Positions 464 to 51,842 of a stretch of DNA of 64,000 nucleotides are shown piece after piece. The DNA comes from Candidatus Cloacimonadota bacterium. GTDB taxonomy: Bacteria; Cloacimonadota; Cloacimonadia; Cloacimonadales; TCS61. The position numbers and the translations under genes were made by a program. The notes below the pieces were generated by a model. It was given only the letters and a program-made list of their open reading frames with translations. It was not told the DNA's origin and did not search any database. How positions within the stretch are numbered: the stretch's first letter is position 1; each line of letters starts with the position of its first letter. Location of the stretch: contig JAUVLU010000008.1 in NCBI GenBank assembly GCA_030600585.1, positions 6,431-70,430 on the forward strand. Direction: 5' to 3'.

Positions 464-688
464 AAAAAATATTACCTTTTACCTTGAAAATGTTTCTTTC
501 GATTTTTCTTCTTGTTTAACACTTTCAAGGTTAACCCGACTTTGAAACACTTTCAAGGTTAGTTTTATATTTTTTTTGAACCTTCCGAATCCTCATATAT
601 CAGTTAATTTGAGAGAAGGCTTCGGAAGGTATTCCCAATAGCCTGCCCGTTCACGGGTAGGATAAGATTTATCAATCAAGAAGAATGA

Positions 689-714
689 GGTTTCCAAGCT
701 GGGGCTTGGAAACC
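689..714. repeat. Perfect hairpin GGTTTCCAAGC-tggg-GCTTGGAAACC (CCAAGC hairpin family)
   Basis: 11-bp perfect inverted repeat with a 4-nt loop, read directly. The same 34-nt string (gaggtttccaagctggggcttggaaaccagaata) recurs at 51670-51703. Confidence 0.85.
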
Positions 715-789
715 AGAATATCAAACTTGGAAACCAGAATATCAAACTTGGAAACCAGAATATCAAACTTGGAAACCAGAATATCAAAC
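706..789. repeat. 21-bp tandem repeat, 4 exact copies (TTGGAAACCAGAATATCAAAC)
   Basis: Exact head-to-tail copies at 706, 727, 748 and 769. The first copy overlaps the 3' arm of the hairpin and the last overlaps the stop codon of the minus-strand gene ending at 784. Confidence 0.95.
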
Positions 790-18007: not shown

Positions 18008-18556
18008 GTGGCTACCAATAAACCTATAGAAATTGTTGAATTATTTGGAGATCTCGAAATTGCTACAGCAGACAAAAAATGGTTTGTTGTTCATACAAAG
18101 CCAAGATGTGAAAAGAAACTTGCAGAATTTTCCTTACAATATGAGATCAATTATTATCTTCCCTTGATAGATAGTATTCGAGTATATAAAAATAGGAAGG
18201 TGAAATTTACAAAACCGATGTTTCCCGGATATGTTTTTACCAAATGTACTCAAGAGAAGAAAAGACAGCTTACTATTACGGGTTATGTTGCCTATTGGCT
18301 TCCGGTACATGATCAGATGGAACTGGTTAGCGATTTACAACAGATCCATTCCGGACGTGAATTAGGTGTTGAATTTACACGAGCAGAATTTTTGGAAAAA
18401 GGTACGAAAGTTGAGATCCAAAAAGGACCGTTTACAGGGCTTATTGGATATGTGGAAAATCAGAAAGATGTGAAAGAAGTTATTTTGCAGGTAACTCTGC
18501 TGCATCAGGCAGTTTCAGTTTCTGCCAGAGCAGATCAAATAAAAGTGATACGATAG
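18008..18556 (+). CDS. NusG-paralog transcription antiterminator (UpxY/RfaH-like)
   Basis: KWFVVHTKPRCEKKLAEF and PMFPGYVF (NGN domain) plus a C-terminal KOW-like segment (GTKVEIQKGPFTGLIGYV). GTG start 5 nt after the previous stop. Confidence 0.7.
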   Translation: MATNKPIEIVELFGDLEIATADKKWFVVHTKPRCEKKLAEFSLQYEINYYLPLIDSIRVYKNRKVKFTKPMFPGYVFTKCTQEKKRQLTITGYVAYWLPVHDQMELVSDLQQIHSGRELGVEFTRAEFLEKGTKVEIQKGPFTGLIGYVENQKDVKEVILQVTLLHQAVSVSARADQIKVIR

Positions 18557-18565
18557 GAAGGTTAA

Positions 18566-19498
18566 ATGAAAGTTTTAGTAACAGGTGGAGCAGGATTTAT
18601 AGCTTCACATATTGTAGATAAATATGTTGAACTAGGTCATGAAGTTGTGGTAGTTGATAATTTATCAACCGGTTTTAAGCATAACGTGAACCCAAAAGCA
18701 AAATTTTATGAAATCGATATTCGCTCAAAAGAACTGGAGCAGATATTTAAAGATGAAAAACCGGAGATCGTGAATCATCATGCTGCTCAGATCAGTGTTC
18801 CTGTATCAGTAAAAGAGCCGGAACTCGATGCTGAAGTTAATGCAATTGGTTTTCTTAACATTCTGCAAAATTGCGTGAAATACAAAGTGAAAAAAGTGAT
18901 CTTCATTTCTTCCGGTGGTGCAATATATGGTGAAGCAGAAGAATATCCTACAACTGAAAATTATGATCCCAAGCCGCTTTCACCTTATGCAATTCATAAA
19001 TATGTTTCGGAAAAATATTTGTATTTTTACCATCATCAATATGGTTTGAAATATACAGTTCTAAGATATGCAAATGTATTTGGACCGCGTCAGATTCCTC
19101 ATGGAGAAGCCGGAGTAGTTTCCATTTTTATTACGAATTTCAGAGATAACAAAAAAACATATCTCTATGCTTTTGATGAAGAACCTGACGGAATGATCCG
19201 TGATTATGCTTATGTGAAAGATATCGTTAATGCTAATGTGATAGCATTAGATAGGGGAGAACTTGAAGCGTTTAATATCGGTACCGGATTAGAGACAACA
19301 ACCGGACAACTTTATCGAGAAATTGCTTTACAGATGAATACGCAAATTGAACCTGTGCGAAAGGGAGCAAGACCCGGGGATATAAGGAAAAGTTGTTTGA
19401 ATATTGAAAAGGCAAGGAATGAATTTGGCTGGGGACCAAAATATACTTTGCGTGATGGTGTGAAGGAAACAATAGATTTTTTCATGAAGAAAAAATAA
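18566..19498 (+). CDS. NAD-dependent epimerase/dehydratase (extended SDR, UDP-sugar epimerase-like)
   Basis: VLVTGGAGFIASH glycine-rich motif and a Y-x3-K catalytic pair (YAIHKYVSEKY). Confidence 0.8.
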   Translation: MKVLVTGGAGFIASHIVDKYVELGHEVVVVDNLSTGFKHNVNPKAKFYEIDIRSKELEQIFKDEKPEIVNHHAAQISVPVSVKEPELDAEVNAIGFLNILQNCVKYKVKKVIFISSGGAIYGEAEEYPTTENYDPKPLSPYAIHKYVSEKYLYFYHHQYGLKYTVLRYANVFGPRQIPHGEAGVVSIFITNFRDNKKTYLYAFDEEPDGMIRDYAYVKDIVNANVIALDRGELEAFNIGTGLETTTGQLYREIALQMNTQIEPVRKGARPGDIRKSCLNIEKARNEFGWGPKYTLRDGVKETIDFFMKKK

Positions 19499-21869: not shown

Positions 21870-22036
21870 AGTAGCCACCCCAGTTAGTCAATGGGGCAGG
21901 CAGACTGACACTAAAGAACATTTCTTGTTCGCATCCGGCAGTTGCCGGATTGCGGACACAATTGGATTGATAAGTTTAACTTATCAACCAGAATAATGGT
22001 AAAGCGAAAATCAATATGTTAAGTTATTAATTATTT

Positions 22037-22198
22037 ACGGAGAGTCCTGCCGTGTTGCATAACACGGTGCCGGAGCGGTTGAATCCCACACAGTATGCAC
22101 TATGGCTGACGGGACATGTGGGGTGGTCTCGTCCTGATATAGATTAATGAATAATTATTTGCGGAGAGTTGCCGGAGCGGTTGAACGGGGTGGTCTCG
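22037..22198 (+). repeat. 162-bp direct repeat, copy 1: expanded tRNA-Ser 5'-half-like element + spacer + clean tRNA-Ser 5' half
   Basis: Matches 22514-22675 with 5 mismatches and no indels. It ends at ..GGTCTCG, which is anticodon position 35 of the tRNA. Confidence 0.95.
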
Positions 22199-22247
22199 CC
22201 CTGATATGCATCAGGGCGCCATGCCGAATGGCAAGGCGAAAACAAAA

Positions 22248-22502
22248 ATGTATTATGTATATATTTTAAGAATGAAAAATGGTCAACTTTATACAGGATT
22301 TACTTCTGATCTAAAGCGTAGAATGAAAGATCACGAGTATGGAAAGGTAAAGTCTACAAAGTTAAGACGTCCTCTGAAGCTGATACATTATGAAGCTTAT
22401 ATATTAGAAAGTGATGCCCGTAGAAGAGAGAAATTTCTGAAAACATCGGAAGGGAAAAAATTGCTAAAAAAACAAATCAGAGATTTATTACTTACGATAT
22501 AA
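22248..22502 (+). CDS. Small stand-alone GIY-YIG nuclease family protein
   Basis: MYYVYILRMKNGQLYTGFTSDLKRRMKDHEYG carries the GIY-YIG-type motifs (YVYIL ... YTGFT ... R..H) in an ~84-aa protein. Family members normally start at this M, so the upstream ATGs at 22206 and 22221 are probably not used. Confidence 0.8.
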   Translation: MYYVYILRMKNGQLYTGFTSDLKRRMKDHEYGKVKSTKLRRPLKLIHYEAYILESDARRREKFLKTSEGKKLLKKQIRDLLLTI

Positions 22503-22513
22503 TTACATTATTA

Positions 22514-22675
22514 ACGGAGAGTCCTGCTGTGTTACATAACACGGTGCCGGAGCGGTTGAATCCCACACAGTATGCACTATGGCTGGCGGGACATGTGGGG
22601 TGGTCTCGCCCTGATATAGATTAATGAATAATTATTTGCGGAGAGTTGCCGGAGCGGTTGAACGGGGCGGTCTCG
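22514..22675 (+). repeat. 162-bp direct repeat, copy 2 (its last 36 nt are the 5' part of the functional tRNA-Ser)
   Basis: See copy 1. The only difference in the tRNA part is C22668 versus T in copy 1. Confidence 0.95.
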
Positions 22676-22729
22676 AAAACCGTTGTGCTCTTACGGGTAC
22701 CCAGGGTTCGAACCCCTGACTCTCCGCCA
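22640..22729 (+). tRNA. tRNA-Ser (anticodon CGA), class II with long variable arm, CCA encoded
   Basis: Hand fold: acceptor GGAGAGT/ACTCTCC, D stem CCG/CGG with the GAGCGGTTGAA loop, anticodon stem GCGGT/ACCGT, loop CTCGAAA (anticodon CGA), long variable arm, T arm CAGGG-TTCGAAC-CCCTG, discriminator G, CCA. Confidence 0.9.
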
Positions 22730-22891
22730 TGTTTTAGTTAGGAATGAGAAATTAGGAATTACAAATTATCTATCATTAATTAGTAACTAATATATTTTAA
22801 CTTGCCAAACAACAATGTGATAGAAAATATAACATCTGAAACAAGAAAATAACAATAGTTATTAAAAGGATAATAAAATTAGGAGGATATT

Positions 22892-23560: not shown

Positions 23561-23566
23561 ATGAAA

Positions 23567-23597
23567 TGGTGGAGTTTTCTCCACCAATTTTATATTT
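23567..23597. terminator. Hairpin terminator between convergent genes
   Basis: TGGTGGAG-tttt-CTCCACCA followed by aTTTTaTaTTT. Confidence 0.65.
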
Positions 23598-23871
23598 AAT
23601 TCAAATAAACCATCCCCAAAAAGAACTTAGGAACGAGTAAACTAGCAATTAGAAGATAGATTCCTAATCGGTCAGTCAGTAGCCGGAGTAAACAGTTTAG
23701 AATGACAGTGATCTTTATTCTATTTTCTTCCTCTCCTTGCAGGTATGAGTCGGCTTGCGAAGCAAACGATCTCAAGAGGGTCGGGGTGAGGTTTCTTCGT
23801 TTCCAAGACACATTTAGGAACGAGCAAAATGCATATCTGTTTTTCTAATTAGGGATTATGAATTTGGATTT

Positions 23872-25107: not shown

Positions 25108-25216
25108 TTATAACTCCTTTATTTCTCAAATCTCAAATCGTATATCGAAATTCTGAAATCAATTCTTCCAGCGGCTTCTTATGTTTCACTTAGGAACGAG
25201 TAAAACAAAAATCTAT

Positions 25217-27194: not shown

Positions 27195-27380
27195 TTTATA
27201 AAAGAATATGAAAAAAAAACTGTATACTGTCTTTCCGAAGCTTGTCTGCCGAAGGCACGGCTTCCCGCAAAGGAATACTTACATTTAAGATTCGGAAAGT
27301 TTTAGATTCGTAACCTTCCGAATCTTATAATAAGGAAAACCGGAAGAAAGCTTCGGAAGGTAAATTAAAAAGGAGGAACT

Positions 27381-30016: not shown

Positions 30017-30259
30017 AACTTGAATTAAGTTTGGCTTTAGCCGGGCTTGATTTAAGTTTTAAAAGGATCACACAAAACCAAGGAATGAAACGAAATAAAA
30101 TGATAATGAGAAATGTATGCGAGCTTAATTCAAGACCTTTGATCTTAAATCAAGTTCTTCAAACTTGCAAAAGACGCAAAAAATGAAATCAACTCAAATG
30201 ATGATGGAAAGCTAAAACTTAACTCATCACAAATAAATTTGAGATAAGTCAAGTTTTGA
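30017..30259 (+). repeat. ~243-bp direct repeat, left copy (REP-dyad-rich spacer)
   Basis: Aligns with 30936-31179 with one 1-nt indel and roughly 19 mismatches by my hand alignment. It starts right after the mfp stop. Confidence 0.9.
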
Positions 30260-30354
30260 AAATTAAGGTCAGCTTGATTTAAGTTGAACACGAATGAGAC
30301 TAAAAACTTAATTCAAGACTTTCAGTCTTAAATCAAGTTTTAATTGGAGGAAAA

Positions 30355-30933
30355 ATGAGGTGTAAACAAGAATTATTTCAAGTAAATAATTACTTCCATT
30401 TTTATAATAGAGCTATTGGAAGCGAAAAATTGTTCAAACATAATGACGATTATATTACACTTTTAACAAAATTAAAAAAAGTCCTTAAAGAATATCCTGC
30501 ATCAGTTTTTGCATATTGTTTAATGCCCAACCATTTTCACTTTCTGATGAGACAAGATAGTGATAAGCCGATAAATAAATTTTTTAATAATCTATTTTCA
30601 TTTTATGTTCAAAATTTCAATAAAAAATATAATCGAAAAGGACAACTTTTTCAGGGAAAATTACAGCATAAACTTATATCAAAAGAAAAATATTTGATTC
30701 ATCTTTGTCGTTATATCCATTATAATCCTGTTAAAGCAAATCTCGTTGATAAAATTGAAGACTGGAAATTTTCCAATTATCCAGAATGGATAAATATTAG
30801 GAAAGGTTCTCTTTTTAATAAAGAATTAAGAGATGAATATTTTCTTTCGATCTCTGAATACAAAGATTCAATCAAAGATTATGGGAAATATCTGGATGAA
30901 AAAGAATTTCAAAACTTACTTTTTGACTCTTAA
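30355..30933 (+). CDS. REP-associated tyrosine transposase (RAYT; IS200/IS605-like Y1 HUH transposase)
   Basis: 192 aa with the HUH motif in AYCLMPNHFHFLM and the catalytic Tyr region CRYIHYNPVKANLV. A single gene flanked by palindromic repeats, as for RAYTs. Confidence 0.8.
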   Translation: MRCKQELFQVNNYFHFYNRAIGSEKLFKHNDDYITLLTKLKKVLKEYPASVFAYCLMPNHFHFLMRQDSDKPINKFFNNLFSFYVQNFNKKYNRKGQLFQGKLQHKLISKEKYLIHLCRYIHYNPVKANLVDKIEDWKFSNYPEWINIRKGSLFNKELRDEYFLSISEYKDSIKDYGKYLDEKEFQNLLFDS

Positions 30934-30935
30934 AA

Positions 30936-31179
30936 AACTTGAATTAAGTTCGATTTTCAGTCGGGCTTGATTTAAGTTTTAAAAGGTTCACATAAAACCA
31001 AGGAATGAAACGAAATAAAATGATAATGAGAAATGTATGCGAACTTAATTCAAGACCTTTGATCTTAAATCAAGTTCTTCAAACTTGCAAAAGACGCAAA
31101 AAATAAAATCAACTCAAATAATGATGAAAAGTCAAAACTTAACTCATCAAGAATAAATTCGAGATAAGTCAAGTTTTGA
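30936..31179 (+). repeat. ~243-bp direct repeat, right copy
   Basis: See left copy. It is followed by the AAGGAG RBS of the RND pump gene. Confidence 0.9.
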
Positions 31180-31198
31180 TAAAAAAGGAGTAAATAAA

Positions 31199-34354: not shown

Positions 34355-34625
34355 AACCTTCCGAACGGTCTCTACCAGCGGTATTCTTCTTGCTTGACCT
34401 TCGGAACGGTTGAAATAGTTGAATCAGGCTTTGTTTTACTACGCCGTGTCAAGAAGGCGCTAAGAACGGAAAGGAAAGTAAAAAAACTAGACTTCTTCGG
34501 CAACTGCCGAATACGTCCGAGCAAGCGGAGAGTACGGAGAGAAAATTTAGTTTAATAGCCCAGCCGTTCACGGCTGGGAATGGATTGAGTGAGCTTTCTC
34601 ATTCCCAATTTTTCAGTTACCGGCT

Positions 34626-34664
34626 AACCCTGAAATTGCTAAATGGAAGATAAATTGAGAGAAG
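34626..34664 (+). repeat. AACCCTGAAATTGCTAAATG..ATAAATTGAGAGAAG repeat, copy 1
   Basis: Near-identical to 36741-36779 and related to 36891-36928. A fragment (aatttgagagaag) is also at 615-627. Confidence 0.8.
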
Positions 34665-34702
34665 CGAAAGTTAAGCAAGAGAATCTCAGCGATCGATTTA
34701 TT

Positions 34703-36562: not shown

Positions 36563-36740
36563 TTCTCCTCCTTTTCAATAAGCTTAATTCATTTTTCTGT
36601 TTCGTTTCTTATATTTTATTAAAACTATTATATTAAATAAAATTTTATATAATTCTGTGTCAAATCATTTTCCCCTATATTTTCATAAGTGTAAAATAAT
36701 CCTTGCGATATTTTTATTGATTTTTTAATTTTTTTCAGCC

Positions 36741-36779
36741 AACCCTGAAATTGCTAAATGTATGATAAATTTAGAGAAG
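36741..36779 (+). repeat. AACCCTGAAATTGCTAAATG..ATAAATTTAGAGAAG repeat, copy 2
   Basis: Direct repeat of 34626-34664. The two copies bracket the three-gene AT-rich block. Confidence 0.8.
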
Positions 36780-36787
36780 TGGTCAAA

Positions 36788-36881
36788 ACTTGAGTTAAGT
36801 TTGCTTTAACTGACTTGACTTAAGCTTTCTATCTAACAGAAAACAGATAACTTAACTCAAGACTATCGTCTTAAATCAAGT
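36788..36881. repeat. REP-dyad cluster (ACTTGAGTTAAGT, ACTTGACTTAAGC, ACTTAACTCAAG, CTTAAATCAAGT)
   Basis: Two plus-oriented and two minus-oriented copies of the CTTGA-N-TTAAG dyad, the same organisation as beside the RAYT gene. Confidence 0.75.
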
Positions 36882-36890
36882 TTCTCTTTT

Positions 36891-36942
36891 AACCCTGAAA
36901 GAGCCAAATGCAAGAATTTGAGAAAGAGACTTTTTCAGGGTT
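36891..36942. repeat. Third, diverged copy of the AACCCTGAAA repeat, forming a hairpin with TTTCAGGGTT across the ATP-grasp stop codon
   Basis: AACCCTGAAA (36891-36900) and TTTCAGGGTT (36933-36942) are perfect inverted repeats. Confidence 0.7.
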
Positions 36943-38198: not shown

Positions 38199-41100
38199 AT
38201 GAAAAAGATTGTATTTTTAATACTTTTTGTAGTTTTCGCAATTAGCATTTCCTATGCATGGCGCAATGCCGAAATGGAAGTGAGGGTTTTTTATAACAAC
38301 CAATATGAACTCGCAAAATTAGCTGAACTTCGTTTGGATGGAGATGTCTATCCCAATGGTGAAGCATTATTATTTGTTATTCCATCCGAACTGGAAATGA
38401 TAAAAGCTACCGGGCTCAAATATAAGATCGAACGGGAAGATTTGAATGAATCTTCCAGGAATTTCTGGCAGTCGATGGACCCCACCCGCGAAGCTTATCA
38501 CACTTATGCAGAAATTGTTGCTATGGCAGACAGTCTGGCAACTGCGTTTCCCGACATCTGTGAAAAGCACATGTTCGGTACTTCCGTGCAGGGAAGGGAA
38601 CTTGCTGCGCTTAAAATAACCGATAACGTTTCGCTCGATGAGAATGAAGCAGAAGTGATGTTCGACGGTGGAATTCATGGTGATGAGATAGGATGTTCTG
38701 AAAATTGTATTCGTTTTGCCCGTGATCTATGCCGCGATTATAGCACAGATCCTTATATTGCTGAACTCATAGATAACCATGAAATATGGATTTATTATTG
38801 TGTAAATCCTGATGGACGTGTAGCAGATGACCGCGAAAATGCTAATGGAGTTGATTTAAATCGCGACTCCGGTTATATGTGGGATGGATGGGGAGGAAGC
38901 TCGGGTGCATTTTCTCAACCTGAGTCGAAGGCTCTCAGAGATTGCCATTACAATCGTCAATTTGTTGTTCATACCACCTACCACAGCGGTACGGAATATA
39001 TTTCCTGCCCATGGAGTTATCGCTCCAGTCAATGTCCCGATTTCGATCATATTATTCAACTCGCAGGCGAATATTCTTCCTCGTCCGGTTATGCAAATAT
39101 ACCATATGGACAGGGTTGTACGGGAATGTATCCTATCAACGGAAGCACAAAAGACACGAATTACGGCATGATGGGAGCTATTAGTTGGTCGATGGAAATT
39201 TCTTACAACAAGCATCCGCCTGCATCACAAATTCAGATGTATTATCAATATAACGTTCCGGCTATGCTCAGTATGATCGAACATTCCGGTTATGGTTTGG
39301 AAGGAATTGTAACCGATGCAAATACCGGTGAACCGGTTACTGCTAATGTATTTATTAATGATTATTTCCCATGCTATACCGATCCGGTTGTTGGTGATTA
39401 TCATAAATATGTTCTTCCCGGAACTTATGATATTACAATTGTGGCAAACGGCTATGAATCGCAAACCATTACCGATGTTACTGTAAGCGCAAATAGTTCG
39501 GAAGTAACTGATTTCCAGTTGCAACCTTTGGAAGGACAATTTGTTTATAAAATATCAGCTTCTCAAATTCCCAATAACAACACTGCGGATGAAGGAGATA
39601 CACCGGGGGTAATTGGAGCACCTGACAGCAGAAATTATTCTATCGGTAAGAACGGCTGGGTGGTTCTTGATATGCAATATCCCATTCCAGATGGAGCGGG
39701 AAATGATATAAAAATATTTGAAGGAGATGCGTCGCCGGAAGGATATACTTGTTATGTCGGAGAATTCATCGATGGACCCTGGTATTCATTAGGAACAGGT
39801 AACGGAACTACAGAATTTGACATAGCATTAAGCAGTCTTATAGAAGCTCAATTTATAAAGATATTAGATGATGGAGATGGAACTGCTATTGCTGCCAATG
39901 CCGGTTTTGATCTGGATGCTGTTGCTGCCCTGGAAAGCTTTTCCGGAGTTTATATTGGTTTGATGAACTACGAAATTGATGATACTGCTGGGAATAGTAA
40001 TGGCAGAATCGATCCCGGAGAAACTGTGAATATTGTTGTCACTCTTTTGAATAATAGTAATATTATAGTAGAAGATATTGAAGGAATGATAAATACGATT
40101 TCTCCATATATTATCCTCAATGTTGCTTTTGCAGACTTTGGCGACCTTGCTCCGGATCAAACAGGAGAAGGAGTATTTACCATAACAGCTGATGATATTA
40201 CACCTGTCGGAGAGGAATTTGAACTTGAATTGGATGTAACTGCTAACTCCGGAGCATATACAAATAATTTTACCATGTCTTTCTCAGTTGGTGGTTTTTT
40301 AATAGAAGAATATTTTGATGGTGCTTCTTATCCTCCAACCGACTGGAGTATAAGCGGATCCAATCCTGGCAACTGGTCTTCATCAAGTACAGCAAATGCC
40401 GGAGGATCCGCACCTGAATCCAAATTTAGCTGGTCTCCATCATTTGTTGGCGAATCTGCTCTTACTTCACCTGTGATCAACACAATGGGATTTACAAATC
40501 TGGTACTTACTTATAAACATTTCCTGAATGATTGGAGTGGTAATGGTTATTCCATCGGTGTAAAAACAACCTCTGATGGCGGCAGCACATGGAATACTGT
40601 TTATGAAGTATTTCCAACCGGAGATATTGGACCGGAAATACTGGAACTTACAATTGAAACTTCAGATGTAGGTTCACCTACATTCCAGATTGCGTTCTTC
40701 TTTAATGGAAACAGCTTTAATTTGGATTATTATTACATTGATAATGTGATTCTGGAAGGAGAAGCAGGCGAATTCAATCCACCACAAACCTTGGCTGTAG
40801 AATGCATCGAAGATTATGCTCACTTCACATGGGAAGCCCCGGCTGTCGATCTGAATTCCAGGGACAAAGATACAAAAGCAAAAGCAGAAGAAACACGTGA
40901 TCTGACAGGTTATAATGTATATCTGGATCAAGTAGAAGTGGCAAACAATATCCCGGATCTGGAATATGATTTCTATGATCTGGTTAATGGTGATTACTAC
41001 GATGCAGGCGTAAAAGCTATCTATGATGATGGTACATCCGAACTTGTAGAGATCAACTTCCTGGCCGAAATAACTGGTGCAGGAAATATCTTGCCGCTGG

Positions 41101-41375
41101 TCACAAAACTTACCGGCAACTATCCGAATCCATTTAATCCGACAACAACGATCAGCTTCTCAACAAAAGAAGCAGGTCATGTTTCAATTAATATTTACAA
41201 CATGAAAGGTCAGCTTGTTAAAACACTTATAAATGAGAATCTTGAAGAAGATTATCATGATGTTATATGGAACGGTAAAGATAACAGTAATAAGACAGTT
41301 TCAAGTGGTATATATTTCTACAAAATGAAATCCGGTAACTATACTGCAACAAAGAAAATGATCCTTATGAAATAA
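38199..41375 (+). CDS. M14-family zinc carboxypeptidase with T9SS C-terminal sorting domain
   Basis: 1058 aa with a signal peptide. M14 motifs GGIHGDEIG (H-x-x-E) and VNPDGR. C-terminus NYPNPFNPTTTISF...SGIYFYKM...KKMILMK is the T9SS type-A CTD pattern. Confidence 0.85.
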   Translation: MKKIVFLILFVVFAISISYAWRNAEMEVRVFYNNQYELAKLAELRLDGDVYPNGEALLFVIPSELEMIKATGLKYKIEREDLNESSRNFWQSMDPTREAYHTYAEIVAMADSLATAFPDICEKHMFGTSVQGRELAALKITDNVSLDENEAEVMFDGGIHGDEIGCSENCIRFARDLCRDYSTDPYIAELIDNHEIWIYYCVNPDGRVADDRENANGVDLNRDSGYMWDGWGGSSGAFSQPESKALRDCHYNRQFVVHTTYHSGTEYISCPWSYRSSQCPDFDHIIQLAGEYSSSSGYANIPYGQGCTGMYPINGSTKDTNYGMMGAISWSMEISYNKHPPASQIQMYYQYNVPAMLSMIEHSGYGLEGIVTDANTGEPVTANVFINDYFPCYTDPVVGDYHKYVLPGTYDITIVANGYESQTITDVTVSANSSEVTDFQLQPLEGQFVYKISASQIPNNNTADEGDTPGVIGAPDSRNYSIGKNGWVVLDMQYPIPDGAGNDIKIFEGDASPEGYTCYVGEFIDGPWYSLGTGNGTTEFDIALSSLIEAQFIKILDDGDGTAIAANAGFDLDAVAALESFSGVYIGLMNYEIDDTAGNSNGRIDPGETVNIVVTLLNNSNIIVEDIEGMINTISPYIILNVAFADFGDLAPDQTGEGVFTITADDITPVGEEFELELDVTANSGAYTNNFTMSFSVGGFLIEEYFDGASYPPTDWSISGSNPGNWSSSSTANAGGSAPESKFSWSPSFVGESALTSPVINTMGFTNLVLTYKHFLNDWSGNGYSIGVKTTSDGGSTWNTVYEVFPTGDIGPEILELTIETSDVGSPTFQIAFFFNGNSFNLDYYYIDNVILEGEAGEFNPPQTLAVECIEDYAHFTWEAPAVDLNSRDKDTKAKAEETRDLTGYNVYLDQVEVANNIPDLEYDFYDLVNGDYYDAGVKAIYDDGTSELVEINFLAEITGAGNILPLVTKLTGNYPNPFNPTTTISFSTKEAGHVSINIYNMKGQLVKTLINENLEEDYHDVIWNGKDNSNKTVSSGIYFYKMKSGNYTATKKMILMK

Positions 41376-41464
41376 GGGAATTACGCTCTGACCTTTTCTG
41401 GAAGGGGCAACTTTTCAATCCTTATGAAATAGTAATACAAAGCTCTGTCTTTGTGAATTGAATA

Positions 41465-41498
41465 AGTCCTTCGGTGAAAGCTGAGGGGCTTTTTTTTT
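41465..41498 (+). terminator. Rho-independent terminator after the M14 gene
   Basis: AGTCCTTC-ggtgaaagct-GAGGGGCT (two G.U pairs) followed by T8. Confidence 0.6.
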
Positions 41499-41683
41499 GA
41501 TGTACCACGTTCACCTTGAACGTGTTGTTTTCAACGTGTTATCCTGAACGTGCTGTTCACAACGTGTTATCTTTTACTCTCGTTCCCAAAGCCCTCTTTG
41601 GGAATGCAATAAAATCTCAGCAGGTTACCAATCCAGTCTTCGTAAACTACGCCTTGGCAAGCAGGGGATTGGTAACCAGAATA
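41499..41683 (+). repeat. 185-bp intergenic module, copy 1
   Basis: Aligns without indels to 43586-43770 with 6 mismatches. It contains the AACGTG array and two long hairpins. Confidence 0.95.
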
Positions 41684-41720
41684 TTTGTGAATTGGTAACC
41701 AGAATAATGGTTAAAGGCGG

Positions 41721-41766
41721 ATAAATCCTGAACGTGTTTGAACGATCGGGACGATCGTTTTACTTT
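41721..41766 (+). repeat. 46-bp module (ATAAATCCTGAACGTGTTTGAACGATCGGGACGATCGTTTTACTTT), copy 1
   Basis: Matches 43988-44033 with 2 mismatches. It contains the palindrome AACGATCG-gga-CGATCGTT. Confidence 0.9.
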
Positions 41767-42128
41767 TGGTTGTACAACATTCACTCAGAACGTGCAAATA
41801 ATAGAGATTCCCGATTTGTCGGGAGGAGTGACAGTGTTCATTTCTTGCCATTTCCGTTTTGCTAATTCGGTAGGAATTTGTGAATATTTACAACAACACA
41901 GCACCTTTCTAAAATTTATTTAAATAAAGTTTGACAAAATAAAACAGTGAATTTTTTAAATTTATCAGAGTTAAAGTTTTAAAGTTTGAGAAACATGAAT
42001 GTGAACTATAGGAATTAAAATGTTGATTATATTAAAACTAAATCGTTACTATCGCAAATAAAGAAATTTGATATTACCTATCGAAAATAAAATTATGAAA
42101 ATTAATCAAAAAAATTAAGGAGAAAAAA

Positions 42129-43373
42129 ATGAAAAAAACAATGATTTTTGCAACAATTCTTTTACTTGCAGTTAGTGCCTTCGCTATAAACCCTCCTACA
42201 GATGTAGCCGTAGATGATCTTACCGGTACGGTAACTTGGTCTGAACCTGTTGTAAGTGGAGTAATTATCGAAGATAACTTTGATAGTTATACCGTAGGTG
42301 ATTACCTTGCTGTAGTTGATGAATATTGGACAACCTGGTCAAATAATCCGGGTGGACCTGAAGATGCATTGATAACAGATGTAGAATCAAACAGTCCATC
42401 TAATTCTGTATTAGTTGAATTAAATAATGACGTTGTCCTTATTATGGAAAACTACACATCTGGTGTATATTCAATTGAACTTAGTATGTTTGTACCTACA
42501 GGTTATTGCGGATATTTTAACCTGCAAAAAACAAATGTTCCAGGTACGGAATGGGCATTCCAGATTTACTTCCAGACAGATGGAGTAGCATTGGCTGATG
42601 CCGGTGGTGCCGGTGCTCTAACTTATAATTTCAATCACGATGAGTGGATGGATCTTAAATTGATAGTTGACTTAGATACCGATTGGGCTACTTACTATCA
42701 TAATGGCGTAGAGATGATAGGATATGCATATTCAACAGGATGTTTTGGAACAAGTGCTCTTTTATCATTTGGTGGAGTTAACGTGTTTGGCGGTGCAAAT
42801 CCAAGCGGTCCTGGAGATACTCCAATGTTCTATTTCGATGATGTTATTCTAAGTACTGCAGTAGCTCCAACTCGTGACCTTACCGGTTACAATGTATATC
42901 TTGATGATATGATAACTCCTGTTACTACAGTTGGTATCGATGTATTTGAATATACATATGAAGCTCTTGTAAATGGTCAGGAATATACAGCAGGCGTTTC
43001 CGCTGTTTATGATGAAGGTGAGTCTGAGATAATTGAAGTTATTTTTGTTTACGGTGGAAATTCTGCTGGAAATGTTGTAATAGCAACAACGCAACTTAAC
43101 GATAATTATCCAAATCCGTTCAATCCTATTACAAATATTGCATATTCAATAAAAGATGCCGGTAATGTAACAATTGAAGTTTACAACTTGAAAGGTCAGC
43201 TTATTAGAACACTTGTTAATGAAGTTAAAACAACAGGTGATCATACAGTAATCTGGGATGGTACAGATAATTCTAACAAGTCTGTTTCCAGTGGTGTATA
43301 TTTCTATAAGATGGTTTCAGACAGCAACATTGGCAGATATACTTCCACAAAGAAAATGATTCTTTTGAAATAA
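42129..43373 (+). CDS. T9SS-sorted surface protein (unknown N-terminal domain + FN3-like module + CTD)
   Basis: 414 aa with a signal peptide. C-terminal NYPNPFNPITNIAYS...SGVYFYKM...KKMILLK. The RDLTGYNVYLD module is shared with the M14 protein. Confidence 0.75.
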   Translation: MKKTMIFATILLLAVSAFAINPPTDVAVDDLTGTVTWSEPVVSGVIIEDNFDSYTVGDYLAVVDEYWTTWSNNPGGPEDALITDVESNSPSNSVLVELNNDVVLIMENYTSGVYSIELSMFVPTGYCGYFNLQKTNVPGTEWAFQIYFQTDGVALADAGGAGALTYNFNHDEWMDLKLIVDLDTDWATYYHNGVEMIGYAYSTGCFGTSALLSFGGVNVFGGANPSGPGDTPMFYFDDVILSTAVAPTRDLTGYNVYLDDMITPVTTVGIDVFEYTYEALVNGQEYTAGVSAVYDEGESEIIEVIFVYGGNSAGNVVIATTQLNDNYPNPFNPITNIAYSIKDAGNVTIEVYNLKGQLIRTLVNEVKTTGDHTVIWDGTDNSNKSVSSGVYFYKMVSDSNIGRYTSTKKMILLK

Positions 43374-43555
43374 GGAAATTTCGCCTGACCACTCACGAGT
43401 GGTCAGGCAACTTTTCAATTCTTTTGAAATAGTAATACAAAGCTCCATAATACCTTGCGAACGGTGCATTGGCTTGAGTAGCAAACGATGCTGGAATTCT
43501 CTTGCATGTCGAACGGTTGTAAACCTTCGCAACGGTTAATGTGAGCTGTTAGAAA

Positions 43556-43585
43556 TTAGCCCCGGTTTGCCGGGGCTAATTTTTT
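43556..43585 (+). terminator. Strong rho-independent terminator
   Basis: TTAGCCCCGG-tttg-CCGGGGCTAA followed by T6. It sits immediately 5' of repeat copy 2. Confidence 0.75.
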
Positions 43586-43770
43586 GATGTACCACGTTCA
43601 CCTTGAACGTGTTGTTTTCAACGTGTTATCCTGAACGTGCTGTTCACAACGTGTTGTCTTTTACTCTTGTTACCAAAGCCCTTTTTGGGAACGCAATAAA
43701 ATCTCAGCAGGTTACCAATCCAGTCTTCGTAAACTACGCCTTGGCAAGCAGGGGATTGGTAAGCAGAATA
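43586..43770 (+). repeat. 185-bp intergenic module, copy 2
   Basis: See copy 1. Here it lies between convergent genes. Confidence 0.95.
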
Positions 43771-43987
43771 AAACACACGATCTTGTATCCAAGCCCCAGC
43801 TTGGAAACATCTGATACAGAATAATTTTACTGAATAGGGTTACCAAGCAGGGGATTGGCAACCAGAATATTTTTGGATTGGTAACCAGAATATCAATATA
43901 TCAGCTCTTCAGCTTTTCTGAGGGGCTTTTATTATACCACGTTCACTCAGAGCCAAGAAAACTGGCGGACTTGTAAGCCTACGGCTT

Positions 43988-44033
43988 ATAAATCCTGAAC
44001 GTGTTTGAACGATCGGGGCGATCATTTTACTTT
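43988..44033 (+). repeat. 46-bp module, copy 2
   Basis: See copy 1. It ends 5 nt before the stop codon of the minus-strand gene. Confidence 0.9.
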
Positions 44034-44038
44034 CAATA

Positions 44039-47000
44039 TTATTTCAATAACAGTATTTTTCTTACTTTTGTTTTTTCTCCGTTATTAAGGTGGATAAAAT
44101 ATATGCCGGAAGCTACAGAATTATTAGAATTATTCTTTCCATACCAGACATATTCATGATTTCCGGTTGGTAGAATATCTTTACACAGATTTTTAACTTT
44201 TTGTCCTTTAATATTGTAAATTGAAAGTTCTACTTTGCTTTCAACTGGAACATTGAAGCGGATATTAGTGGAAGGATTGAATGGATTCGGGAAATTGACA
44301 AAGTCATAAACAGCAGATAAAATATCATCCGATGATGCAGTATTATTGTTAATGACAACCAAGCCTGAAATCGTTCCAATTTGAGAAGGAATAAAGGAGT
44401 AATTATAATTTCCGCTTGTAAGCTGATTCCAATTATTGCCGTCAATTTGAATATCAGCATAATAACTTTCCGGCAAGTTTGGCATATCGAATTCAAGAGT
44501 TACTGCATCTAAAGTATGAATTTCCAAAATAAAATTCCACAGTTTAAATTCTGGTAATCCAGTTTCTAAAGATGACCTTATTTCACGATTCAACTCAGAA
44601 TAAATGAAAAGGGAATCGAGTTGTGAATCTTTTGGAATATACATTCTAATTCCATTTTCTACAGGTTTCGCAGGTGCTTCCGGTATATCGTATGCATTAT
44701 CAAAATTATCTGTTGCATATTCGCTGCAACCCACAATTATTTCATCGGTATCAGATTGAGCTGCAGAGATCGTAATTTCCCAATCTATATCGGGGATATA
44801 TTGATATCCATTATAATATGGTAAAAACCGGCATTCCATATTATCGAAGTTCTCATTATTTACATACAAATAAAATGCTTCGTATGGATGTATAATATTT
44901 GCTTTTTCAAATTTACCATCTTTGTAAATATAAGCAGCATTTGCTATAAGTTCTTCTTCAACAGCATAATCAAAACAGAAAGTGTGTCCGGCATTCCGCA
45001 TTCTAAGATCGCGCGGATCATAAGGACACAGATGTGGATTTTGAATAAGATTCCAACCTGGAATTAATGCAAAAGAAAATTCATCTTTCATAATTGAACC
45101 GGAATGTGTGAAATATCCCTCTAATTCTGCATTGAGCCAGTACCCGTTCCCAAATACAAATTCATCGGAAGATCCAAAATTATTATGCGGAAGGGGGAAC
45201 AATAATTCAGAATTTGTTCCAAATATTTCTGAGGCAAAGAATTGTTCATCACTATTCCATGGATTACTGATCAACTGCCAACCTTCGGTGAATTCGATTG
45301 TATATTCCAATGGAACAATTCCATATATACTTGTGGAATAATACTCATAAATTGTTCCATCTACAGCATGAACGCCAATGACGACTCGAGCATTGTGCAT
45401 TTCAATATCTTCCGGTGTATTCCAAATATATTGCTCTTCAAGCCGATTCACATAATCAGCAATTACGATAGTAGTTTCTTCATCCTGCAATGAAATATCA
45501 TAATATTCGATCAATTGAGAAACGCCGGCTTGCCATCCGATGAATAACTCATCTCCTCCTTGCAGAAGCTGATTTTGCATGTTAATGAAATTAACATAAG
45601 GATGCAGATCACCCCAATATAATTTGAAATCGTAATAAGTTGTGTCTTCGGCAAAGAAGATCAGATGATCATTAACAATATTTGTAATCTGATCGGTCTG
45701 CAAGTTCATCAAGAATAATTTTTCGTTGCTATTTATAAATTCTGAGCAGACTGAAATTTTTATTGGTTCATCAAGTTGGTTGGTTTTCACTTTTAAATTC
45801 CAAATCTTGTAATTTTCAAAAGGAGAAAATTCACCATGAACCTGCTGTTGAAGATATATTCCGCCAGGAATCCAAAATTGTTCATAAAAAGCTGAGAAAA
45901 TATATTCATCCGGCAACGCAATATTTTTCTCAAAATCATAGTTTGTATCAAACCAGTCTGTAGCAAATTGGTTCTTTGAGAACGTGACGGAATCTATAAT
46001 AGTTAAATTGGAATTTGACACAAAAAGATTAAAATAATCATTTGGAGAGCAGTTTCTTGAGTATTTATAAAAAAATTCTCCGCCATCTTCATTCTCCGAT
46101 GAAATTCGATATGTGTAGATCCTGCCATTTTCAACATCTTCATCAAAATAGGAATATTCTTCTTCAGGATTTTGAGTTCCAGCTAATACCGGATTTGTAA
46201 TCCAGCTATCGATCTGGATAAATTCACCTCCCTCAATTTTTCTGTAGATATTGAATCCCATATTTCCATCTTGTTGAACTGCTGTCCACTTGATGTTAGA
46301 TTTGGAATCGAGTCCAATTGCGATTAGATCACTGATCTCAACAGGTGGAGTAACAACTTCAATTTCTTCTGAGAGGGGAGAGTAATCTCCATTTTTATCT
46401 ACAGTGCGTATCTGGAAATAATAATTACTATTGAGATCAAGATAATATACTTCATAATTATTATGTAATGGGCTGGCAAAAAGTGAAAATTCATTTCGAT
46501 CAATTATTGTGTAATTAGTATGATTTATCGGCTTATTTGCGAAATAAATTTCGTATGAATGGAAATCGTAGGAAGAGACAGGTTCCCATCCCAGATCGAT
46601 TGAATTATGATCAACATCGATAGCAGTAAAATTTTGGGGAGTAGCCGGAGCAATTCCATCATCAAGCTCTAAAGCAGCAGGCAATACTTCCGTCATTGCA
46701 TCTACCCAATATGAATAATAAGAGAGTGTTTTATCAAAAAGCATATCCATTTGGAACATATTGCTTTCCGTATTAAACCCATAGAACCAGTGATAATTCT
46801 CTTCCAATTCTTCATAGCTTCCCGGTAATTCGTCCATTTCTATATGAAAAAATGGATCAAAAACATCATATCCGTTCCAATTCTGGTAAGTATAGAGTTT
46901 TTGTTTGTTCCCGCTATATCCCGGAAGATCAATATTATCATTAACCGGATACGGATCACCTTCCCAATTATAAAATAAAAAGTCATAGTAAGAATAATAA

Positions 47001-47959
47001 ACCGAATAATAATCGTTAAGAAAAACCTCTGTATTGGAACCTATTGTATTCTGTGGAACAACAACATGTTCACTTGCATTTATCATATCGAGATGCAGAT
47101 CCGATAGGTCTCTGATAGGAAGGTTGGGACAATTAGACATTGCAGAGATCTGACAATCCGGATGCCCATCATGTCTGTCCCAGTCATAACTGTGGATCTG
47201 AGCTGAGAATTCTCTTCTGTCAAAATCTTCTCTGATGTTATCACAAAATGATTTATAAGCTACATTAAAAACTACATCATCATTTCTGGAAGGATCGCAC
47301 AAAGATTTGGAATTGGAATAATTACCTTGATTCGTCCACAGAACTTCTCTTCCTGCACCTGAGATCAGCAAGAATTTTGCGTTCCAGTCATCAAAACATT
47401 TATATCCGATAGTCGATGTAATAAAATCGTCATTCGGATGTGGAACAGTTATAATTACCGGATTTATCGATTGCGGATTATGAATGAAAAGTCCCCAGCC
47501 ATAATCGAAGGAACCGATCTCATCATCATAAGTGTCAATGGTTCCGTTTCCATCATAGTATTCAGGATTCAATATTTCACGTAACATATAATATATATTT
47601 CCGGTATCGGTATCATTAAATTCTACAACATGATACGGAAAGTTAAAATAATCCAGCATACTCTGAACCGCAAAATAATTTCCTGCCAGAAAAGCATCGA
47701 TTACATTTTGCCATTGTTCCAGTATAGTCTCATCAGGTAATATAAATGATCCAAAACCTTCCGATTGCACATCCCATGGTGAGTATAGATTATAATCTTC
47801 TTCTGCGATACCTTCGGTAATATGGGATATCCAATTGTCATATTCACATTCTTCTGCATTACCATACAAAAAATCTGTGAACGATGCAGTTTCAACTATT
47901 AACGAAAATGCATTGACCCATATAAACAAGGATATGATCAGAAAAAATATTCTCTTCAT
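44039..47959 (-). CDS. Very large T9SS-sorted surface protein (FN3-like domains, unknown N-terminal domain)
   Basis: 1306 aa with a signal peptide. FN3-like segment (PATPQNFTAIDVDHNSIDLGWEPV..). C-terminal FPNPFNPSTNIRF...SGIYFIHL...RKILLLK CTD. Confidence 0.75.
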   Translation of the reverse strand: MKRIFFLIISLFIWVNAFSLIVETASFTDFLYGNAEECEYDNWISHITEGIAEEDYNLYSPWDVQSEGFGSFILPDETILEQWQNVIDAFLAGNYFAVQSMLDYFNFPYHVVEFNDTDTGNIYYMLREILNPEYYDGNGTIDTYDDEIGSFDYGWGLFIHNPQSINPVIITVPHPNDDFITSTIGYKCFDDWNAKFLLISGAGREVLWTNQGNYSNSKSLCDPSRNDDVVFNVAYKSFCDNIREDFDRREFSAQIHSYDWDRHDGHPDCQISAMSNCPNLPIRDLSDLHLDMINASEHVVVPQNTIGSNTEVFLNDYYSVYYSYYDFLFYNWEGDPYPVNDNIDLPGYSGNKQKLYTYQNWNGYDVFDPFFHIEMDELPGSYEELEENYHWFYGFNTESNMFQMDMLFDKTLSYYSYWVDAMTEVLPAALELDDGIAPATPQNFTAIDVDHNSIDLGWEPVSSYDFHSYEIYFANKPINHTNYTIIDRNEFSLFASPLHNNYEVYYLDLNSNYYFQIRTVDKNGDYSPLSEEIEVVTPPVEISDLIAIGLDSKSNIKWTAVQQDGNMGFNIYRKIEGGEFIQIDSWITNPVLAGTQNPEEEYSYFDEDVENGRIYTYRISSENEDGGEFFYKYSRNCSPNDYFNLFVSNSNLTIIDSVTFSKNQFATDWFDTNYDFEKNIALPDEYIFSAFYEQFWIPGGIYLQQQVHGEFSPFENYKIWNLKVKTNQLDEPIKISVCSEFINSNEKLFLMNLQTDQITNIVNDHLIFFAEDTTYYDFKLYWGDLHPYVNFINMQNQLLQGGDELFIGWQAGVSQLIEYYDISLQDEETTIVIADYVNRLEEQYIWNTPEDIEMHNARVVIGVHAVDGTIYEYYSTSIYGIVPLEYTIEFTEGWQLISNPWNSDEQFFASEIFGTNSELLFPLPHNNFGSSDEFVFGNGYWLNAELEGYFTHSGSIMKDEFSFALIPGWNLIQNPHLCPYDPRDLRMRNAGHTFCFDYAVEEELIANAAYIYKDGKFEKANIIHPYEAFYLYVNNENFDNMECRFLPYYNGYQYIPDIDWEITISAAQSDTDEIIVGCSEYATDNFDNAYDIPEAPAKPVENGIRMYIPKDSQLDSLFIYSELNREIRSSLETGLPEFKLWNFILEIHTLDAVTLEFDMPNLPESYYADIQIDGNNWNQLTSGNYNYSFIPSQIGTISGLVVINNNTASSDDILSAVYDFVNFPNPFNPSTNIRFNVPVESKVELSIYNIKGQKVKNLCKDILPTGNHEYVWYGKNNSNNSVASGIYFIHLNNGEKTKVRKILLLK

Positions 47960-51613: not shown

Positions 51614-51624
51614 TGATATATGCT

Positions 51625-51728
51625 CTTGTATCCAAGCTTCAGCTTGGATACAAATAATCAACGTGATGAGAAGGTTTCCAAGCTGGGGCTTGGAAACCAG
51701 AATACTATATCCAAGCTGGGGCTTGGAT
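51625..51728. repeat. Three consecutive CCAAGC-N4-GCTTGG hairpins
   Basis: TTGTATCCAAGC-ttca-GCTTGGATACAA (51625-51652), GGTTTCCAAGC-tggg-GCTTGGAAACC (51672-51697) and TATCCAAGC-tggg-GCTTGGATA (51707-51728). Confidence 0.9.
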
Positions 51729-51842
51729 ACAAGAATGTTATGTAGTTTATTTACAATTAATTTTATACTTTTAATTACTTTGATATTAAATAATTAATTA
51801 CTCGAGATTTTACTTGCAAAAAAATGGAAGGAATAAATATCT

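Follow-up and report, generated by a model that had tools for sequence, protein, structure and literature searches.

Hairpin modules in the 3' flanks of two paralogous T9SS cargo genes of a Candidatus Cloacimonadota bacterium

Two neighbouring genes for cargo proteins of the type IX secretion system (T9SS) in a Candidatus Cloacimonadota bacterium are followed by non-coding blocks that are nearly identical between the two genes. They lie in a 64,000-nt stretch (hereafter the window) of GenBank assembly GCA_030600585.1 (contig JAUVLU010000008.1, positions 6,431 to 70,430). With a probability put at about one half, both 3' flanks are read here as three-layer mosaics of hairpin modules, in which a post-stop unit, H, is followed by a canonical intrinsic terminator, and two larger modules, B and C, lie behind the terminator. 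The three modules are of different kinds. B and C are recent, lineage-specific repeat DNA, and H, which alone among the flank layers is linked to cargo genes, is old. The 96-97% identity of the B and C copies would reflect recent copying of DNA between the two neighbouring flanks, most likely through gene conversion, driven by homology, or unequal recombination that started in the common gene end and flank, and would not be due to purifying selection on a cargo-specific RNA.

Shared blocks and terminators of the two flanks

The observation from which this reading starts is sound. A first-pass annotation had described a 185-bp module with 6 differences and no indels, a 46-bp module with 2 differences and a common post-stop string of ~35 bp, and recounting bears it out. 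The two copies of module B (41499-41683 and 43586-43770, 185 nt) differ by exactly 6 mismatches (41569, 41581, 41585, 41596, 41605 and 41676) and no indel, those of module C (41721-41766 and 43988-44033) by 2 mismatches in 46 nt, and the post-stop string is in fact 40 nt long (41406-41445 and 43406-43445; repeat D16), with 2 differences (95% identity). The ungapped match of module B reaches into the terminator tails (41485-41683 and 43572-43770, 199 nt, 96%; repeat D3, one of the three longest repeats within the window), and that of module C extends to 51 nt at 92% (repeat D13). A further common block, absent from that annotation, covers 49 nt at 94% identity (41658-41706 and 43844-43892; repeat D14). 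In the alignment, the order of blocks is mostly collinear in both flanks (post-stop block A, terminator, B, repeated arm, C). The edges of module B are sharp and identical in both copies, next to unrelated sequence, and both copies are preceded by ...TTTTGAT.

The adjacent coding 3' ends, correctly described earlier as homologous yet far more diverged, share 55-58% amino acid identity over the C-terminal 161-167 residues (FN3-like segment plus T9SS sorting domain) and 65% nucleotide identity at the C-terminal end, with 51% at third codon positions. Since third codon positions are near saturation, neutral flanks as old as the gene duplication would be unalignable; since B and C are absent from all relatives, strong selection on them is implausible, and the two modules must therefore be recent copies. 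Recombination between the flanks is favoured by the largely collinear blocks, by a coding identity that climbs towards the stop codon (from 0.52 to 0.78, with 0.95-0.97 in the flank blocks), by a like gradient in the syntenic gene pair of another species (locus L020; 0.68, 0.81, 0.90, then 0.96, with different flank sequences) and by the presence of just two, adjacent, copies.

As the first-pass annotation had proposed, predicted terminators sit immediately before both copies of module B. T1 (41464-41491), detected by a terminator scan, is a G+C-rich stem-loop followed by T9, the make-up of an intrinsic terminator. T2 (43556-43579), read directly from the letters, is a predicted intrinsic terminator with a perfect 10-bp stem (TTAGCCCCGG-TTTG-CCGGGGCTAA) followed by T6. 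The T2 module, with its TTAGC leader, is 83-86% similar to terminator modules of the related loci L019, L020 and L041. The terminator module at one L020 gene end (L020_end9522) is itself bounded by CTGATGAAATA, and the flank of the M14 orthologue in the syntenic locus L066 is a bare terminator of 144 nt. Tandem heptamers (AGTTAGC/AATTAGC/TGTTAGA) stand between the stop codon or H and the terminator stem in L019 (2223-2260), L020 (2509-2530, 9523-9545, 11231-11265 and 11366-11395) and the window (43546-43560); as 7 = 1 mod 3, three copies put TAG in every reading frame.

The post-stop unit H

H is a unit of 57-59 nt directly after the stop codon, consisting of an imperfect long stem-loop of 43-45 nt (GGGAATTTAGCCCC...GGGGCAACTTTTC) and a direct repeat of the gene end, which is 9-14 nt and mostly 11-14 nt in length; the 40-nt post-stop string is its 3' portion. 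Gene tail and second repeat match at 14 of 14 positions in each of the window copies, and the 40-nt strings differ from each other precisely where the gene tails do, at two positions. Likewise, L019 and L047 carry AAG in the gene tail and in the repeat alike. A covariance model (R1) matches copy 1 at 41373-41432 with 70.3 bits and copy 2 with 66.3 bits. A clean empty site is provided by L046, where ...ATGAAATAG is joined directly to TAACACAAAGCTCTGTCTTTGTG (in a longer reading, ...ATGATCCTTATGAAATAG joined to TAACACAAAGCTCTGTCTTTGTG, with the terminator next). Window copy 1 equals this flank plus the 43-nt piece and the 14-nt repeat, so that filled and empty sites differ by the element and one copy of the direct repeat. 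The flank that follows the second repeat in the window stands directly after the stop codon in L046 and after an array of H units in L041.

H follows T9SS-tail genes in L019, L020-L024, L044, L047, L049, L051 and L052. Among the open reading frame (ORF) ends in ~150 kb of Cloacimonadota loci, it is present after 13 of 21 tails of the KKMILMK (T9SS) type and after none of 81 others (Fisher p = 2e-11; 8e-9 with the discovery loci removed). H is thus linked to cargo genes. The stop codon is TAA in all eight H-filled sites and mostly TAG in unfilled ones. The covariance model found no further copy in 338 kb, unrelated control loci included. A degenerate module-A pattern gave real matches at 3 of 21 metagenome loci (L025, L041 and L044), the others being T-rich chance matches. 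H is old, is kept across several Cloacimonadota lineages and has not spread recently.

The stem of H is supported by compensatory changes. In an alignment of 13 distinct units from eight loci plus the window, GGGAA.TT.GCCCC pairs with GGGGC.AA.TTTTC; 94.8% of the cells of this helix are paired, against 39-62% in slid controls, four pairs have compensatory double changes, and none of 500 shuffles reaches the observed covariation score. Two positions hold G-U pairs, which points to the sense strand. H combines occurrence in several lineages and compensatory changes with a place on the predicted transcribed strand ahead of the terminator. Because it lies upstream of that terminator, H would be transcribed as the first part of the 3' untranslated region (UTR), where it would probably act as a protective or pausing stem-loop.

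H also occurs in head-to-tail arrays, with six units in L041 (right after the stop codon), at least seven in the sister contig L025 and two in L020; its copy number thus ranges from 0 to at least 7, with near-identical copies inside an array. In L025 (1-413) and L041 (750-1103), the at least seven and six 59-nt units stand before an identical downstream flank; either the copy number truly varies here or the array was collapsed in short-read assembly. In L051 and L052 the fossil gene tails measure 21 and 33 nt, respectively, which speaks against a fixed target duplication and for conserved gene ends that slip or recombine unequally with one another. Replication slippage or unequal recombination, acting between the flanking direct repeats and between paralogous gene ends, would be the way in which H is gained, lost and amplified.

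Three other explanations of H were considered. A transposase target duplication of fixed length is ruled out by the 9-14-nt repeats, the fossil tails and the arrays. A read-through extension of the protein fits copy 1, which is 57 nt, in frame and free of stops, but copy 2 and the L041 units, at 59 nt, meet stops quickly, and it is rejected. H is also considered unlikely to be a canonical terminator itself: its T-rich 3' side pairs with the GGGAA 5' side, and the true terminator comes after it. There is a small chance that H is a dedicated cargo-specific signal or cassette system, beyond a hitch-hiking hairpin. As a signal, it could be a sense-strand RNA stem-loop at the stop codons of T9SS cargo genes that affects termination, mRNA stability or localisation; as a cassette system, it could comprise site-specific mini-cassettes (hairpin plus terminator modules) entering the conserved gene end ...ATGAAATA(R), with the stop codon rebuilt each time.

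Modules B and C and the origin of their copies

B and C are lineage-specific composites of REP-like palindromes (REP, repetitive extragenic palindrome), several with tandem copies of one arm and tail. Module B starts with hp1 (CACGTTCAcctTGAACGTG) and four AACGTG strings at an exact 14-nt period (41519-41566), followed by the long hairpins that the first-pass annotation had noted: hp2, a TCTCG-tagged palindrome (TCTCGTTCCCAAAGCCCTCTTTGGGAATGC), and hp3, with arms GGTTACCAATCC (41623-41634) and GGATTGGTAACC (41666-41677); after the tail comes a tandem copy of arm plus tail. The last 27 nt of module B belong to a palindrome family of the form CCAAGC-N4-GCTTGG followed by CCAGAATA/CAAGAAT, and its 5' 165 nt have no copy in the window beyond the two B copies. 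Within the extra material of copy 2, the 25 nt of the inverted palindrome (43784-43808) are identical to 51710-51734. Module C of copy 2 and the stop codon of cargo gene 3, which is convergent, are 5 nt apart. The earlier description of the setting also holds: the copy 1 modules lie upstream of a co-directional gene, and those of copy 2 between convergent genes.

Searches for further copies of B and C were negative. The pattern for the 5' part of module B had no true match in 185,579 GTDB genomes, with one chance match in a Phycisphaera coding region; this representative set apparently lacks the source genome, since the two window occurrences of the pattern were not among its matches. Nor did this pattern match anything in JGI metagenomes or IMG/VR, and the pattern for module C had no match in IMG/VR. 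BLAST of 41485-41830 (B, repeated arm and C) returned nothing in phages or plasmids, and the fetched parts of 11 related loci, including L066, contain no copy of either module. The spaced pattern AACGTG-N8-AACGTG-N8-AACGTG had 16 matches in IMG/VR, all of them unrelated 14-nt tandem repeats. Two candidate functions of module B were rejected. As a small protein gene it has a 60-73-residue frame open in both copies, but the translation shares no words with 5.8 billion proteins; as a promoter it offers weak 9-of-12 matches, and copy 2 lies between convergent genes.

Of the routes by which the copies could have arisen, conversion ranks first, transposition second and insertion of a gene cassette third, with a functional RNA and an assembly artefact both unlikely. 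Several points weigh against the layered reading with recombination as its source. High-identity blocks alternate with unrelated segments (the H stem-loops differ, as do T1 and T2), and copy 2 carries extra inserts of ~100, 66 and 90 nt; given this patchiness, one simple conversion tract is insufficient. The left edge of module B coincides with the ends of two different terminators, which is more like site-preferring insertion than conversion, and hp1-like starts recur behind two further hairpins (41773 and 43935), in an order relative to module C that differs between the copies. The collection scans required an exact match to a single pattern, from the 5' part of B (genomes, metagenomes and IMG/VR) or from C (IMG/VR only), and the count of B and C copies covers 64 kb of the source genome. 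For H, loci were reached mostly via cargo-gene homologues and the association was measured only against genes in their flanks, and array lengths taken from short-read assemblies may be misjudged.

The strongest competitor, tentative though it is, sees in B, and separately in C, a discrete non-autonomous mobile element that entered behind each of the two terminators independently, for example a REPIN (Bertels and Rainey 2011; PMC3116915) or a palindrome-associated element derived from IS200/IS605 insertion sequences, with a Y1/HUH transposase acting in trans. The edges of B are sharp and the same in both copies, beside unrelated sequence and non-homologous terminators, the same ...TTTTGAT precedes both copies, and hp1-type starts occur at two other sites with a hairpin and T run. 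Elements of the IS200/IS605 type have subterminal hairpins and lack terminal inverted repeats and target duplications. Module B likewise has subterminal hairpins (hp1 and hp3) at its ends, which are not complementary (GATGTACCACG... against ...GGTAACCAGAATA), and neither copy shows terminal inverted repeats or a target duplication. An intact gene for a REP-associated tyrosine transposase (RAYT) lies 11 kb away, and REP-like palindromes are found in both orientations. However, only two adjacent copies exist in 64 kb, though more than 15 other intergenic regions hold other repeats; no copy appears in any public collection searched; the RAYT gene of the window is flanked by a different palindrome family; and the collinear blocks and the coding-to-flank identity gradient suit recombination better. 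The first-pass proposal of a recently spread element targeting cargo 3' flanks therefore divides between the layers. Targeting is supported for H, which occurs behind T9SS-tail genes only and has an empty site in L046, and does not hold for B and C: no other copy of them was found in the loci and collections searched, and their constituent palindromes also stand behind MORN-repeat and deaminase genes and in phage-like contigs. Recent spread fits B and C, as recent copies, and not H, which is old and shared by several lineages.

Less probable still, the 414-aa gene came as a cassette, through single-crossover integration of a circle or ectopic recombination in the B-C region, and the direct repeats of B and C are a by-product. 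Such an event would account for the repeat-gene-repeat layout, with B, the repeated arm and C on each side of the gene at spacings of 2087, 2186 and 2267. At the corresponding position in L066 the 414-aa gene is missing and other genes come after the M14 gene, while L020 and L047 have a 409-aa orthologue at a different locus; within the window, the RAYT gene and a GIY-YIG ORF are likewise bracketed by direct repeats of 93-96% identity. No donor or circular form is known, however, some of the post-stop and terminator sequence is common to both flanks as well, something a cassette event need not produce, and the closest syntenic relative is only 63% identical, with many rearrangements between the genomes. 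An exact-protein look-up of the ATP-grasp neighbour, which sought a strain-level empty site for B, gave no match.

That B and C are functional RNAs (a small RNA, sRNA, or 3' UTR module) for T9SS cargo expression under purifying selection is very improbable. Both copies stand in sense behind cargo genes, and module B folds strongly (-62.3 kcal/mol; z = -4.0 on the sense strand), but the opposite strand folds nearly as well (z = -3.1), as is expected of palindromic DNA. Both copies begin after terminators, and C copy 2 is antisense to its nearest cargo gene. None of the six differences in module B is compensated and two break predicted pairs, with the minimum free energy changing from -55.7 to -48.9 kcal/mol. 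Rfam gave no match across the window, and in 41300-44100 merely two hits at about half the gathering score. B and C are absent from the related loci (L066 included) and collections searched, and the two copies show no compensatory change; occurrence in relatives with covariation would mark a conserved structured RNA. The conserved 3' UTR or sRNA put forward in the first-pass annotation is thus not supported for B or C, and may apply to H. Lastly, an artefact of the metagenome-assembled genome (MAG), through a chimeric or duplicated join, hardly merits consideration: short-read assemblers do err at repeats of 50-200 nt, but the copies differ at specific positions and carry different inserts, and a Logan assembly made independently from the same sequencing run (SRR18936872) is identical to the window over 41721-43500, which supports real repeats, and breaks where module C starts, at the repeat boundary, as expected of a true repeat. 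The right end of this contig (L001), at 43500, falls within the 100-nt insert found once in the window, which may indicate an extra copy or strain variant elsewhere in the sample.

Table 1. Positions of the flank layers, neighbouring genes and related repeats in the window.
Feature	Position	Strand	Details
H unit copy 1	41361-41431	+	last 14 nt of coding sequence (41361-41374, ATCCTTATGAAATA), 43-nt stem-loop piece (41375-41417), exact second 14-mer (41418-41431)
Post-repeat region copy 1	41432-41498	+	conserved string GTAATACAAAGCTC, small hairpin 41437-41454, terminator T1 (41464-41491 plus T run; predicted)
Module B copy 1	41499-41683	+	hp1 (41506-41524), four AACGTG, hp2 (41578-41607), hp3 (41623-41677), tail AGAATA
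Tandem repeat of hp3 3' arm and tail	41684-41706	+	TTTGTGAATTGGTAACCAGAATA; repeat D14
Module C copy 1	41716-41797	+	C 41716-41766 with hairpin 41740-41759; then hp1-like TACAACATTCAC...GAACGTG (41773-41793)
H unit copy 2	43359-43431	+	coding sequence tail ATTCTTTTGAAATA (43359-43372), 45-nt stem-loop piece, exact tail repeat (43418-43431)
Region before B copy 2	43432-43585	+	GTAATACAAAGCTC, ~100-nt hairpin insert only in copy 2 (43446-43545), TTAGC-type leader, strong T2 (43556-43579 plus T6; predicted)
Module B copy 2	43586-43770	+	6 differences from copy 1
Extra material of copy 2	43771-43892		REP-like palindrome, inverted (43784-43808); second hp3 end and repeated arm (43837-43892)
Region with module C copy 2	43903-44033	+	terminator-like hairpin T3 (43903-43927), hp1-type start TACCACGTTCAC (43935-43946), small hairpin, C (43983-44033)
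T9SS cargo gene 1	38199-41375	+	M14 carboxypeptidase, 1058 aa, tail ...TKKMILMK*; Pfam Peptidase_M14, CarboxypepD_reg, Por_Secre_tail, FlgD_ig
T9SS cargo gene 2	42129-43373	+	414 aa, tail ...TKKMILLK*; Pfam; module sets on both sides
T9SS cargo gene 3, convergent	44039-47959	-	1306 aa; Pfam fn3, Por_Secre_tail
RAYT gene	30355-30933, within 30036-31188	+	Pfam Y1_Tnp; NCBIfam REP_Tyr_transpos, 80 bits (equal to the cut-off)
Palindrome family after non-cargo MORN-repeat gene	688-809	+	hairpin TTTCCAAGCtgggGCTTGGAAA, then four copies of a 21-nt arm and tail repeat
Hairpin with CCAGAATA tail after non-cargo deaminase gene	21967-21995	+	stem differs from the CCAAGC type
Three palindromes of one family, clustered after cargo gene 4	51620-51737	+	repeat D6

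The assignment of the genes as T9SS cargo is confirmed by Pfam, with sorting domains (Por_Secre_tail/FlgD_ig) in cargo genes 1 and 2 and in two more adjacent genes. In the protein collection searched with both cargo proteins, the closest homologue of the M14 protein is 63-65% identical and that of the 414-aa protein, whose homologues are from Cloacimonadota, 72% identical; homologues of both carry the names Candidatus Cloacimonadota/Cloacimonetes, and none is from a close relative of the source genome. The 414-aa protein itself was found solely on the source and on one Logan contig of 1.8 kb.

Palindrome families, known systems and significance

The palindromes from which B and C are built belong to families that extend beyond the two flanks. 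The window holds more members of the hp2 and hp3 families than expected (6 matches where 0.05 were expected and 11, for ACCAGAATA, where 0.63 were), and units of the hp2, hp3 and CCAAGC-N4-GCTTGG types are all intergenic, i.e. short extragenic imperfect palindromes. Full CCAAGC-type members lie at 688-809, 43784-43892 and 51620-51737; the unit at 43784-43808 is inverted among direct ones, and the 51620-51737 cluster is all in one orientation. The TCTCG-tagged hp2 type also occurs in L066 and in multiple copies in several IMG/VR contigs, with at least nine copies in one 42.5-kb contig and stem variants that keep their pairing. The phage-like contigs L053, L054 and L056-L065 (among them IMG/VR 3300028193_000001, 3300028276_000002, 3300028276_000193 and 2619618927_000002) carry the palindrome TCTCG-TTCCCAAGC...GCTTGGGAA in many intergenic gaps and in both orientations; in L054 it fills at least three gaps, and none of the 10 ORFs there has a Pfam match. 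Its presence in phage-like contigs and in Cloacimonadota loci (the window and L066) suggests either repeat sharing between host and phage or misclassified host DNA. In L066, one member of the palindrome family (18548-18575, CATTCCCAAACAGGGGTTTGGGAACGAG) is not in a spacer but within the sequence that encodes a T9SS sorting domain.

The RAYT gene retains intact HFH and YIHYNP motifs and lies upstream of B and C. It is flanked by 233-nt direct repeats (30036-30268 and 30956-31188, 93% identical) made of CTTGAWTTAAG palindromes, a family different from those in B and C, so that cognate REP sequences of B and C do not flank it. The gene is inserted between the membrane fusion protein (MFP) and AcrB genes of a resistance-nodulation-division (RND) efflux operon and is not in the MFP-AcrB spacer of L066. 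Further copies of CTTGAWTTAAG occur at 30305-30339, with look-alikes, seen by eye, in the 36563-36934 spacer.

A recurring architecture in these repeats is a palindromic hairpin with one to five tandem copies of one arm and tail, at periods of 7, 14, 21, 23 and 24 nt, and longer in L047. It is found in the window (688-809, 41506-41570 and 41623-41706), in L054 (47-146 and 7149-7200) and in L047 (4605-4940), with different sequences in the window, the relatives and the phage-like contigs; the TTAGC heptamers before terminators are a mirrored form with a 7-nt period. The arm copies may be due to slippage at hairpins or be protein-binding iterons, and could be recognition sites of HUH-type enzymes rather than slippage debris.

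Most spacers longer than 150 nt in the window hold some repeated hairpin. Other intergenic families include the hairpin ACCTTCCGAA...TTCGGAAGGT, the string TTAGGAACGAG(T/C)AAA, a 42-nt string beginning GCTAACCCTGAAATTGCTAAATG and CCCAATAGCC-hairpin motifs (625-660 and 34570-34600). Sites of these further families are 464-660, 27195-27380, 34355-34700 and 43446-43545; 23561-23871 and 25108-25216; and 34623-34664, 36738-36779 and 36888-36929. In the region 21870-22891, an 84-aa GIY-YIG nuclease ORF (22248-22502; Pfam E = 9e-16) lies between 169-nt direct repeats (22030-22198 and 22507-22675, 96% identical) whose sequence is similar to the 5' part of the tRNA-Ser(CGA) gene next to them (22640-22729); the arrangement has the look of a small insertion, mobile or homing, at a tRNA gene. 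At 47-478, five 72-nt coding repeats (64-74% identical) are MORN_2 repeats that end the truncated first gene.

The closest known kind is that of REPs and bacterial interspersed mosaic elements (BIMEs) with RAYT, as defined by Nunvar et al. (2010; PMC2817692). Common to both are short imperfect extragenic palindromes clustered in mosaics, mostly behind genes, stem variants that retain pairing, and a RAYT gene whose HUH and Tyr motifs are intact and which has its own palindromes around it. REPs usually number more than 100 per genome; the counts given here cover 64 kb. The palindromes of the window, however, lack the GT(A/G)G head and have TCTCG (hp2 family) or CCAGAATA/CAAGAAT (CCAAGC family) as their conserved flank, and the RAYT gene lies within direct repeats of another palindrome family. 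The host also differs, being a member of Cloacimonadota: no RAYT homologues were reported from other major bacterial lineages, and an origin after gammaproteobacteria had branched was proposed (Nunvar et al. 2010). Many units in the window differ further in carrying tandem copies of one arm and tail. We know of no description of such copies as a REP feature.

Other systems share parts of the pattern. Gene conversion between neighbouring paralogues similarly gives an identity peak in one segment that decays away from it, and the pattern is repeated in a second species with other sequence; here, however, the homogenised part is mainly non-coding flank, patchy and interrupted by unrelated hairpin modules. 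Miniature inverted-repeat transposable elements (MITEs; Correia/NEMIS) and IS200/IS605-derived elements are likewise small, non-coding, hairpin-rich and near gene ends, and H shares with MITEs the filled and empty sites with flanking direct repeats; unlike them, B lacks terminal inverted repeats and target duplication, and the direct repeat of H is not fixed in length and is shared within head-to-tail arrays. Similar to minisatellites, or variable-number tandem repeats, H forms head-to-tail series of 57-59-nt units (1, 2, 6 or at least 7), near-identical within an array, but it lies across the stop codon of a single gene class, its stem-loop is conserved and covaries, and it is common to paralogues and to different lineages. 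H thus resembles a MITE insertion or a minisatellite and fits neither definition fully. As with integrators at tRNA genes and integron attC cassettes, a copy of the target gene 3' end bounds the insert and serial insertions leave a series of copies, but the inserts here are 43-110 nt, encode nothing and have no linked recombinase, and the R''-L''/L'-R' architecture of attC is lacking. No paper on such elements in Cloacimonadota or behind T9SS genes was found in the literature.

B and C look like ordinary selfish or structural repeat DNA, and non-coding DNA that is better conserved between paralogues than the adjacent coding DNA is usually a sign of recent copying in repeat-rich flanks, not of function. 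Short-read assemblies break at these repeats, exactly at the ends of cargo genes. Repeats of the REP/RAYT type and mosaics resembling BIMEs seem to be at work in Cloacimonadota, a phylum whose members are known from little else than MAGs. Should H influence the fate of mRNA, T9SS substrates would have in it a first cis element tied to cargo; should it not, H would show cleanly how hairpins drive slippage and concerted evolution in nature.

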